A DNA stretch of 64,000 nt from a virus. Positions 1,564 through 58,270 of the stretch are shown here, piece after piece. The position numbers and the translations under genes are program-made. The notes under the pieces are model-generated. The model had not been told where the DNA came from, searched no databases, and saw only the letters and a program-made list of their open reading frames with translations. Numbering within the stretch: position 1 is the first letter of the stretch; the number at the start of each line of letters is the position of its first letter. The stretch lies in IMG/VR virus record IMGVR_UViG_3300025897_000009; one strand, given 5' to 3'.

Positions 1564-1830
1564 TTATGAATCTGTGTCTTTGCCTTCTTCGGCGAGACCT
1601 TGCGTACTTTTACTTTCGGCAATTTTGTCATAATTAATTGGACCCAATGGGTTCGGTAAGTCAATCCCAGATTCTACTCGATAGGCAAAGTCTCCTCTGC
1701 TCAAAACCTTCATGATCTTTGCTTTACCTAACTCGCCATAGTTGATTAGACTATTACTGTAATCTGTTTCTACCACAATGTGAAATCGTATCTTTCGATT
1801 ATCTTCCATGGCGATATCTACGAGTGCCAC
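1564..1830 (-). CDS. Hypothetical protein
   Basis: 88-aa ORF overlapping the rpsU 3' end, same strand. Confidence 0.55.
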   Translation of the reverse strand: MALVDIAMEDNRKIRFHIVVETDYSNSLINYGELGKAKIMKVLSRGDFAYRVESGIDLPNPLGPINYDKIAESKSTQGLAEEGKDTDS

Positions 1831-2035
1831 CTAATCCACTGCCCGATAATTTCCTAGCATCCTTTTGATGCCTGCGTATCGCTGCACCTTTTTTGCGATT
1901 TCTTTTATCACAAGGTTTCTCATAGAACTCTCGCTGTCTCACCTCTTGGATGATACCTGCTTTTTCTACTTGTTTTCTGAATCTAGAGAGCATTCGGTCG
2001 AAGTACTCTCGGTCTCTAGGTGTCACTTTTGGCAT
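1799..2035 (-). CDS. rpsU: Ribosomal protein bS21 (phage-encoded)
   Basis: MPKVTPRDREYFDRMLSRFRKQVEKAGIIQEVRQREFYEKP closely follows the S21 pattern (E. coli [30 protein letters not shown]). Confidence 0.93.
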   Translation of the reverse strand: MPKVTPRDREYFDRMLSRFRKQVEKAGIIQEVRQREFYEKPCDKRNRKKGAAIRRHQKDARKLSGSGLGGTRRYRHGR

Positions 2036-2059
2036 AATATATTTTCTTGTTGTAAATTA

Positions 2060-2229
2060 AAAAGTGTCAAGTCGCCCCACAATCTCTCGCTCTTGACTAA
2101 CAGTTCCCGCACTTTAACTGCTTTGCCCAATTCATCAGTTGCCCCATGGTCTTATGCCTATGCTGCCAATCCTTCGCACTGATGATGATGGGAACTGAAC
2201 CAGCAACAATCCAAACCCATCCCCACTTT
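2060..2229 (-). ncRNA. Candidate structured RNA / leader between gp32 and rpsU
   Basis: GC-richer intergenic region with several complementary pairs (CAGTTCCC/GGGAACTG, TCATCAGT/ACTGATGA, GTCAAG/CTTGAC, GATGGG/CCCATC) downstream of a late promoter. Confidence 0.5.
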
Positions 2230-2243
2230 ATCTGTATACAGAT

Positions 2244-2251
2244 TATTTATA
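2244..2251 (-). promoter_or_regulatory. T4-type late promoter TATAAATA
   Basis: Exact consensus right after the gp32 stop codon. Confidence 0.75.
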
Positions 2252-2252
2252 A

Positions 2253-3173
2253 TCAACTATCGTTTGCTAATCGTTGAAAGTAATCCATATCGTCGTCACT
2301 AGAAGCACTTGGTGCTACTTCTGCTGTTGCAGAAGGACTTTCGTCTGCTGTGTTCCAAGGTAAATCTGGTGCACTCGCAGAATCTAAATCAGCATCTTGT
2401 GCTACAGATTCAGCAGTTGCTCCAGAAACAGCAGTTCCTAGTACTCTATCCAACTTCTCTTTGAGTTCGTCATAAGACTTGAACTCTGCAGGAGCAATCA
2501 CACTGTTAAGTGAATATTGTTTGCTATAGAGTTCCTCTAAAGAAGTATCGTCGCCATCAAACAGAGGAGTCACTGGATCGAACTCTGATTTATCATAGTT
2601 CCAGAATCCATCAACTTTTCTTAGTTTGATTTTGAAGTTTGCACCTTCCCAAAAGTCGAAAGGGTTTAAAGGTGTTTCATCTTCAAATGCTGGGCACATT
2701 GCCTCTTTTAGCATTTCAAAGATCTTCTTACCATATCTGTATAAGAATACCTTTCCTTCGTTTTCAGGATGCTTAGGATCAGACACAACTAAAATGTTAG
2801 AAACATAGTGTAGTCTTCTCTTTTGTTTCCTTGCTTGATCTTTGTTTGCCTCGATTCCAGAGTTCCATAGTTGAGTATTGTACTCAGAAACTGGATCGTT
2901 TTTCCCAAGAGTCGTCAAGGACTTCTCAATGAACCAACCACCTGGACCTTGGAATCCATGATCCCAGTAAGTAACCCATGGTTGCTCTTCGCCTGCTGGG
3001 GATGGTAGGAATCTAACTACAGCAAACCCATTGCCAGACTTATCCATTTCTGGTTTCCAGAATCGTTCGTCTACATAGGATTTAGTTTTAGATCCACCAC
3101 TATCGGCATCAGCCATGGCAGTTTTTAGTTTATCGAGTGAACCTCGATTGCGTTTTAAGTCAGCGAATGACAT
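2253..3173 (-). CDS. 32: Single-stranded DNA-binding protein gp32
   Basis: MSFADLK, DERFWKPEMDKSGNGFAVVRFLP, HGFQGPGGWFIEKSLTT, acidic C-terminus YFQRLAND. Confidence 0.97.
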   Translation of the reverse strand: MSFADLKRNRGSLDKLKTAMADADSGGSKTKSYVDERFWKPEMDKSGNGFAVVRFLPSPAGEEQPWVTYWDHGFQGPGGWFIEKSLTTLGKNDPVSEYNTQLWNSGIEANKDQARKQKRRLHYVSNILVVSDPKHPENEGKVFLYRYGKKIFEMLKEAMCPAFEDETPLNPFDFWEGANFKIKLRKVDGFWNYDKSEFDPVTPLFDGDDTSLEELYSKQYSLNSVIAPAEFKSYDELKEKLDRVLGTAVSGATAESVAQDADLDSASAPDLPWNTADESPSATAEVAPSASSDDDMDYFQRLANDS

Positions 3174-58033: not shown

Positions 58034-58110
58034 TGGCGATCCAGAAGGGACTCGAACCCTCAACTTCTGCCGTGACAGGGCAGTGCTCTAACCAATTGAA
58101 CTACTGGACC
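58034..58110 (-). tRNA. tRNA-Asp(GTC)
   Basis: Cloverleaf GGTCCAG..CTGTCAC..GTTCGAG..CTGGATCGCCA, CCA encoded. Confidence 0.95.
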
Positions 58111-58114
58111 AAAG

Positions 58115-58190
58115 TGGTGGAGTGAGAGGGACTCGAACCCTCGACCTCTTCCGTGCAAGGGAAGCATTCTCCCAACTGAACTACCACCCC
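58115..58190 (-). tRNA. tRNA-Ala(TGC)
   Basis: GGGGTGG..CTTGCAC..GTTCGAG..TCACTCCACCA, G3:U70. Confidence 0.95.
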
Positions 58191-58194
58191 ACAT

Positions 58195-58270
<76 letters not shown>

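Follow-up and report, generated by a model that had tools for sequence, protein, structure and literature searches.

A family of predicted structured RNAs at the gp32/rpsU junction of uncultured marine T4-like phages

The DNA analyzed here, referred to as the window, is the whole 64,000-nucleotide stretch of virus record IMGVR_UViG_3300025897_000009 from IMG/VR. On its minus strand lies a gene for the gp32 single-stranded DNA-binding protein (2253-3173; Pfam gp32, E 9.5e-41), whose stop codon reads at 2255-2253, followed by a gene for a phage bS21 (rpsU; 1799-2035; Pfam Ribosomal_S21, E 3.5e-17) with its ATG at 2035-2033. Among the ribosomal protein genes that viruses carry, the one for bS21 is the most common. 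As the gp32 DNA is about 73% identical to gp32 of pelagiphage HTVC008M, the window derives from a marine T4-type myovirus. HTVC008M has no copy of the RNA described below. Between the two genes a predicted T4-type late promoter box, TATAAATA, occupies 2244-2251 on the minus strand and is also present in all four groups (A-D) of close relatives. The gap from this box to the bS21 gene is about 210 nt without a credible ORF, and the rpsU start has no clear Shine-Dalgarno (SD) sequence. A preliminary description of the window had proposed a G-rich non-coding RNA between a late promoter and rpsU, and in these respects it was correct. The gap between the gp32 stop and the S21 ATG is non-coding, the box lies upstream of the RNA with S21 downstream, and the G-richness is real across the family found here (mean G 32%, mean C 14%, with 4-8 runs of at least three G per RNA). 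The bounds it gave, 2243-2060, do contain the RNA and are slightly wider than the model matches at 2228-2061.

No conserved small ORF accounts for the gap. The 35-aa and 32-aa ORFs within it are disrupted by a 1-nt indel in relatives, and the lengths of the element across the family spread evenly over the three classes modulo 3.

The box TATAAATA occurs ten times in the window, always on the minus strand (2244, 6751, 17722, 21509, 24253, 38010, 43509, 45905, 48851, and 53841) and never on the plus strand, with 5.4 occurrences expected over both strands. This distribution fits functional late promoters, and the ten boxes provide a map of likely late promoters in the window. A sigma70-like TTGACA-18-GAAAAT (2070-2041, minus) overlaps the 3' arm of P4, the last hairpin of the RNA, and lies 5 nt upstream of the S21 ATG; it was rejected as a promoter, since neither L012 nor group B preserves its spacing. 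On the 3' side of S21 an 88-aa ORF with no Pfam match (1564-1830, minus) overlaps the S21 gene by 32 nt. Its DNA is 95% identical to groups B and C (L003/L058 comparison) with S21 there only about 65% identical, a mosaic pattern that suggests recombination near the RNA.

The RNA in the window is about 168 nt long and is modeled as four consecutive local hairpins, P1 to P4, with G-rich conserved loops (2061-2228, minus; bounds from matches to the models R1 and R2, below). P1 (2187-2221) pairs GAUGGG with CCCAUC (arms 2221-2216 and 2192-2187) and carries GUUGCUGG in its loop (2207-2200). P2 (2132-2185) is formed by UCAUCAGU and ACUGAUGA (arms 2185-2178 and 2139-2132), encloses GCGAAGG...AUGGGGC, and holds a clade-specific insert at about 2169-2147 with a UGG/CCA pairing and GUAAGACC. 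The unpaired segment J2/3 (2122-2131), GGG-N-AA(A)G, includes positions whose conservation among 98 sequences is 97% or more. P3 (2100-2121) pairs GCAGUU with AACUGU (2121-2116 and 2105-2100) around the loop AAAGUGCGGG, which contains a conserved GCGG. P4 (2066-2097) has a 6-bp stem, GUCAAG/CUUGAC (2097-2092 and 2071-2066), plus two inner pairs and a conserved 20-nt loop, AGCGAGAGAUUGUGGGGCGA. Downstream of P4, after an AC spacer, a U5 run (2063-2059) begins the terminator-like U-rich tail UUUUUAAUUU (2054-2063), and 30 nt separate this end of the RNA from the rpsU start codon. A terminator scan did not call P4 and its U-run in the window. The RNA is single-copy in the window. A K-turn in P4 was considered and rejected, as the G in AGC is paired to the C in GGGGC and A-U replaces this pair by covariation.

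Within the P2 insert, GGCAUAA (2158-2152) is complementary to UUAUGCC (2037-2031) over the S21 start on the minus strand. Groups B-D keep only UGGCA/UGCCA (4-5 bp) of this start-codon pairing, which was set aside and may be chance.

Folding of the sense strand gives -47.4 kcal/mol, with z = -0.11 against shuffled sequence, no better than chance. By itself the sequence thus gives no proof of a structure; the case for structure in this RNA is comparative and not thermodynamic. The minimum free energy of the antisense strand has z = -2.8, a value that reflects the Watson-Crick arms only.

Close relatives were found through the S21 protein, as IMG/VR and metagenome contigs with the gp32-gap-S21 order. 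Ten different gap sequences result, and they form four groups: A (the window, L048, L049, and L053), B (L002, L003, and L079), C (L012 and L083), and D (L060). All keep the order gp32-RNA-S21 with a homologous RNA. Between groups, the 3' half of the gap, with the 3' domain of the RNA, is 91-95% identical, compared with about 65% for the S21 coding sequence. Compensatory pairs inside this clade number five in P1, two in P2, and one in P3. In P1, GAUGGG/CCCAUC changes to AAUGAG/CUCAUU, with three more pairs; in P2, UCAUCAG/CUGAUGA changes to GCUCAG/CUGAGU; in P3, CAGUU/AACUG becomes CAGAU/AUCUG (U-A to A-U) in L012 and L083. The P4 stem is invariant within the clade, and L012 has only U3 downstream of it.

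Further members of this clade were sought by pattern. Exact-pattern scans of IMG/VR gave seven contigs, and a metagenome pattern scan added one new variant (L083) along with three chance matches. A looser tandem-module pattern hit L037, a chance match in a coding repeat that is unrelated to the RNA: at L037:11500-12100 a GC-rich phage contig encodes a tandem 60-nt repeat (...ATLADQLVV(A/S)S(T/A)LSASGSGG...) in an 865-aa protein. The nearest bacterial rpsU loci found, from Zetaproteobacteria (L038-L043), have no such RNA.

To reach beyond the clade we used models of the RNA. R1, built from the close clade, scores the window RNA at 194.5 bits and has no match at more distant S21 loci. One such locus, L007, encodes an S21 that is 51% identical, with gp32 upstream and a gap of 225 nt. 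The L007 gap has the same plan with every stem exchanged, including GUAUGU-AGCG...GUGGGGCGA-ACAUAC followed by U6, a resemblance spotted by eye and confirmed by R2. Searching with the L007 S21 gave 80 further IMG/VR loci with 49 distinct upstream regions, 34 of which carry the element. The RNAalifold consensus of a MAFFT alignment of 32 elements is four hairpins with 30 pairs, 24 of them showing compensatory changes. R2 was made from the MAFFT alignment of these distant relatives, leaving out the window's clade. It matches the window over the full length at 2228-2061 (46.6 bits, E 1.2e-10, model positions 1-164), and groups B-D at 45-55 bits. Since R2 was built without the window's clade, this full-length match makes the window RNA a divergent member of the family. 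A scan of IMG/VR for the P2 motif found at least 120 contigs with the RNA, and 98 distinct sequences were aligned.

In the R2 alignment of these 98 sequences, which is fitted to the model and with which the MAFFT result agrees, 99.3% of pair cells are standard, compared with 29-41% in slid controls. Twenty-five of the 30 pairs have changes on both sides, with 756 such cells against 186 +/- 15 in shuffles. All seven modeled pairs of P1 covary, as do six of seven in P3. P2 appears as ACUGAG/CUCAGU, ACUUGG/CCAAGU, or ACUUCG/CGAAGU, and the P4 stem, though invariant in the window's clade, is exchanged across the family (for example GUAUGU/ACAUAC and GUGAAG/CUUCAC), with an inner G-C covarying with A-U. 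G-U pairs are frequent in the helices, which places the RNA on the gp32 strand. A mutual-information scan of the family alignment picked up the helices again, added a single further P1 pair, and gave no convincing pseudoknot. The preliminary description had called for gp32-rpsU intergenic regions to be collected from relatives; the collection shows strong conservation and covariation.

The same alignments separate the parts of the fold first put forward. Its P1 arms (GAUGGG/CCCAUC), P2 arms (UCAUCAGU/ACUGAUGA), and 3' stem (GUCAAG/CUUGAC, then U5) are all present and are kept with compensatory changes in relatives, so that P1, P2, and P4 stand, and P3 had been missed. It had also drawn a long rod, CAGUUCCC/GGGAACUG, around P2, alternating with P1, making the RNA bistable, as a 6S-like rod or a two-state switch. 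The rod can be drawn in the window sequence (2197-2190 and 2108-2101), and both pairings are possible there. It is broken without compensation by CAGAUCCC in L048, L049, and L053 and by GGGAUCUG in L012 and L083. Mapped onto the R2 family alignment, only 49.6% of its cells pair, within the 25-55% of slid controls. Its 3' half falls inside P3, and P1 and P3, which share the rod's bases, each covary. As the rod pairs no better than controls, mutually exclusive folds are not supported, nor is a conserved 6S-like rod, and we consider a bistable RNA highly improbable.

The family core consists, in order, of a 5'-GGG, P1, P2, J2/3 (AGUA-N-GGG-N-AA), P3, whose loop has GCGG at its end, P4, and the U-rich tail. 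A common build recurs in P2 and P4: next to the stem comes a 1x2 internal loop, then a set of two pairs and a G-rich loop. This shared build explains the tandem GCGA..GGGGCRAC modules in the window. The two inner pairs read CC/GG or GC/GC, and the GC/GC form covaries with AC/GU. Of the unpaired positions, 20 reach a conservation of at least 97% among the 98 sequences and 15 of these are G; the conservation implies a specific partner or a tertiary fold. Each RNA has 4-8 runs of at least three G and almost no C runs.

Canonical members have AUGUGUCCGUGA in the P1 loop, CCGUGGA...GGGGG in P2, and AGCGGG-UGCUGUAA-GGGGCGA in the P4 loop. The window's clade retains GCGAAGG...GGGGC, the GGG-N-AA of J2/3, GCGG, and AGCG...GGGGCGA. 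Its P1 loop is without AUGUGUCCGUGA and its P4 loop without UGCUGUAA; as extras it has GUUGCUGG in the P1 loop and the insert in P2 bearing GUAAGACC. The canonical J2/3 also holds a 5-6 nt SD-like UAAGG(G) that is absent from the window's clade. By these sequence differences the clade is best classed as a divergent subfamily. The RNA has no match to small subunit rRNA models of Rfam 15, either in the window region or in eight canonical relatives.

Catalogues gave no identity for the RNA. Rfam 15 searched against window positions 1700-2600 at E up to 10 returned only two chance matches below threshold, and against eight canonical relatives at E up to 1 it returned none. The families without a match include tRNA, tmRNA, 6S, SRP, RNase P, OLE, the glnA/glutamine riboswitch, and self-cleaving ribozymes. 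Over the whole window, Rfam 15 reported three tRNAs elsewhere and none at the RNA, and ARAGORN found no tRNA or tmRNA there. The absence of tRNA, tmRNA, SRP, and RNase P hallmarks noted in the preliminary description agrees with these searches. The tRNA cluster of the window lies at 58034-58270 on the minus strand (Asp-GTC, Ala-TGC, and Thr-TGT). GenBank phage records have no BLAST match to the RNA and no close S21, and literature text searches returned no description of such an rpsU leader or motif. The suggestion of an undescribed phage RNA thus holds for Rfam 15, GenBank phage records, and the literature searched.

We also examined what surrounds the RNA across the family. Among the matches listed, gp32 is directly upstream in all 119 contigs with enough flank, and S21 is downstream in all 110 where it could be placed, the 10 others having too little flank. 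S21 follows the RNA immediately in 95 listed contigs with gp32 upstream (96 including one without upstream flank). In 15 of the 120 contigs among the matches listed, some 970 nt more separate the RNA from S21, taken up by an inserted gene for a 293-aa DNA-methyltransferase-like protein (L149:620-1749; also L107, L133, L155, L159, L164-L166, and others). The stop of the inserted gene overlaps the S21 start (ATAATG), suggesting that S21 may be translationally coupled to it. Four contigs of 105-151 kb each carry the RNA a single time, with no second copy found. The carriers are uncultured marine T4-like phages of the pelagimyophage type and form one lineage. Taken together, comparison of the sequences shows that the RNA is real, structured, single-copy, strongly constrained, and fixed at the gp32/rpsU junction, and that it is a new family.

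Most members have 6-15 nt from the gp32 stop to the RNA and no late box. Without a promoter between them, the RNA is expected to be made together with gp32 in most members. The box TATAAATA upstream of the RNA is found only in the window's clade and is absent from that place in the canonical family. The window RNA is accordingly predicted to be transcribed from its own late promoter at 2251-2244, and is probably also transcribed by read-through from gp32. The RNA-seq libraries of two studies yielded contigs over the element, at low depth and with DNA carry-over possible. They give no ends, strand, or level; one of these contigs (record 3 of run X1, 1867-2291) spans gp32 through the RNA into S21. 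Metatranscriptome coverage had been put forward as a check on the RNA; these contigs speak to it where they lie, and gaps in their coverage carry no information.

Downstream of P4 three arrangements were seen. In the first, 16-56 nt lie between P4 and the next start, with a median of 22 nt where that start is S21's, and an AGGA(G) is often present. In the second, the methyltransferase-like gene starts closer to P4, with a median of 14 nt. In the third, found in about 10-13% of members among the matches listed, a U5-7 run is followed by a near-consensus sigma70 promoter (TTGACA or TAGACA, N17-18, TATAAT) and then S21, the promoter ending 6 nt upstream of the S21 ATG (L087:1455-1503, L093, L099, L128, L173, L213, and L214 are examples). 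The S21 mRNA in this arrangement is probably leaderless and probably early. A U-rich tail past P4 is found throughout the family, with U-runs of 2 to 8 and a mean of 5.6 where S21 has its own promoter versus 4.5 otherwise. For most relatives, 9-25 nt separate P4 from the start codon that follows, and there the U-run is often interrupted. The insertions, whether methyltransferase-like gene or promoter, are always 3' of the RNA and never between gp32 and the RNA.

What the RNA does can be approached from this layout. The reading we favor, tentatively and with somewhat less than even confidence, is a cis-acting, partner-binding element at the gp32/rpsU junction that would set read-through and translation of bS21. 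As an intercistronic leader, its folded core would bind a protein or the 30S platform, with bS21 the prime candidate; an S21-binding leader was among the suggestions of the preliminary description. P4 and the U-run, lying inside the ribosome footprint at the next start, could double as a leaky terminator and a structure beside the platform. Occupancy of the RNA would then set the share of the gp32 or late transcript that continues into bS21 and is translated; where the methyltransferase-like gene is inserted, bS21 would be translationally coupled to that gene. This reading draws on the nearness of the RNA to the next start site, within the 30S footprint and by the platform where bS21 sits, on S21 remaining coupled to the RNA across the inserted gene, and on the late promoter that precedes the RNA in the window's clade. 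There are also precedents. In Flavobacteria (Flavobacteriales), bS21 regulates the mRNA that encodes it (McNutt et al. 2023, PMC9976891), and RpsU binding has been proposed for OLE RNA (bioRxiv 10.1101/2024.12.08.627333).

Several observations temper a cis role. P4 has a short stem (6 bp, 20-nt loop), with only U3 behind it in L012. Neither an alternative antiterminator nor an anti-SD pairing was found. The constant neighborhood of S21 is weak evidence of a functional link, because the carriers are one lineage and share gene order by descent. Control of S21 in cis cannot be the sole role of the RNA, since the 10-13% or so of members listed whose S21 is served by a separate promoter keep the RNA too. 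The insertions, always 3' of the RNA, fit a tie to the gp32 transcript at least as well.

These last points lead to the main rival, which we hold possible but doubtful: a non-coding RNA derived from the gp32 3'-UTR that acts in trans and ends at P4 and the U-run. It would be the tail of the abundant gp32 mRNA (in the window's clade with its own late promoter too), present as free RNA or as a ribonucleoprotein. Its target could be the bS21 of host or phage, some other part of the ribosome, or a different protein, or it could simply protect the 3' end of gp32 mRNA. The close and constant placement behind gp32, mostly with no intervening promoter, is what such an RNA would show, and the family-wide U-rich tail, the single copy in the four long contigs, the retention of the element where S21 has its own promoter, and the position of every insertion 3' of the RNA all fit as well. 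OLE offers a precedent in its proposed RpsU binding. Against it, the next start is so near P4 in most members, with the U-run often interrupted, that full termination would leave S21 without a transcript, and some 20 invariant unpaired bases are superfluous for plain 3'-end protection.

A riboswitch, in which the core is a small-molecule or ion aptamer and P4 with the U-run a terminator-embedded expression platform gating rpsU, is unlikely in our judgment. The conservation is aptamer-like, with invariant unpaired bases inside covarying helices, and the element precedes a gene and finishes in a hairpin and U-run. Aptamers embedded in terminators do exist, the HMP-PP riboswitch being an example (PMC6478431). 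The lack of a competing antiterminator pairing speaks against this reading, and no Rfam riboswitch matched at E up to 10. The downstream genes, bS21 and the DNA-methyltransferase-like gene, hint at no ligand, the P4 loop is itself among the most conserved parts, and the RNA persists where S21 has its own promoter.

A more specific trans-acting role would make the RNA a dedicated cofactor for phage remodeling of host ribosomes, docking on bS21 or the 30S platform and organized by its G-tracts, possibly around a G-quadruplex; we regard this as a long shot. If true, such an RNA would be made alongside gp32 and bS21, and it could either titrate host bS21 or act as a chaperone that brings phage bS21 into ribosomes.

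A DNA-level or R-loop element, either an origin primed by the G-rich transcript or a recombination site, would suit a G-rich non-template strand in an AT-rich genome beside a replication gene, and the T4 origins oriF and oriG do use R-loops, but it is very improbable given that the covarying helices contain many G-U pairs, which would turn into A-C mismatches if the opposite strand or a hairpin of DNA were the functional form, and that the conserved bases sit in RNA loops.

In pelagimyophages S21 is reported as a core gene, and a search by Riboswitch Scanner reported no regulatory RNAs (PMC7029224). Contrasting with that report, one locus carries a strongly covarying, highly conserved RNA. At least 120 contigs of uncultured marine phages have it between gp32 and rpsU, each genome once, and Rfam does not contain it. 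It provides a testable handle on how abundant marine phages control or use their own ribosomal protein, on what makes gp32 transcripts end or continue, and on the role of unpaired G runs in a natural RNA fold. The R2 model and alignment can be used to annotate the element in marine viromes.

Compared with known systems, the RNA resembles intrinsic terminators and 3'-UTR-derived small RNAs in having a final hairpin and U-run behind a highly expressed gene. It differs from an intrinsic terminator in its P4 stem of 6 bp (plus two inner pairs), its conserved 20-28 nt loop, its AC spacer, and the three further conserved hairpins upstream of P4. The T4 gene 32 translational operator, a pseudoknot with an AU-rich unstructured ribosome-binding region that is bound by gp32, is likewise found in a T4-type phage at the gp32 locus, and likewise has a folded element followed by an AU-rich ribosome-binding-site stretch. 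However, the T4 operator is 5' of gene 32 and controls gp32, whereas this RNA is 3' of gp32, before rpsU, and has four hairpins with no pseudoknot detected. Like the orphan motifs in the collections of Weinberg et al., and like ROOL and GOLLD, it was discovered by covariation only and belongs to uncultured marine phages; it is much smaller than ROOL and GOLLD, and is single-copy at one gene junction. With OLE RNA (RF01071) it shares many conserved unpaired bases and a link to bS21, proposed for OLE and positional for the phage RNA. OLE is a bacterial RNA of Firmicutes with a length of about 600 nt that associates with the membrane together with OapA/B/C, in contrast to about 165 nt for the phage RNA, and the two have no sequence or structure match. 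Autoregulatory leaders of ribosomal proteins bind the protein encoded behind them, mostly through a likeness to its rRNA site; for the phage RNA, bS21 binding or rRNA mimicry is putative. The flavobacterial rpsU signal is an extended SD, whereas the phage RNA is four hairpins before an rpsU whose SD is weak or missing, and about 10-13% of the phage members listed have a promoter between RNA and rpsU. Still, both systems have a special or structured 5' region directly before rpsU, both could plausibly read ribosome composition (with or without bS21) as the signal, and both would place that structure where the 30S platform, bS21, and mRNA meet.
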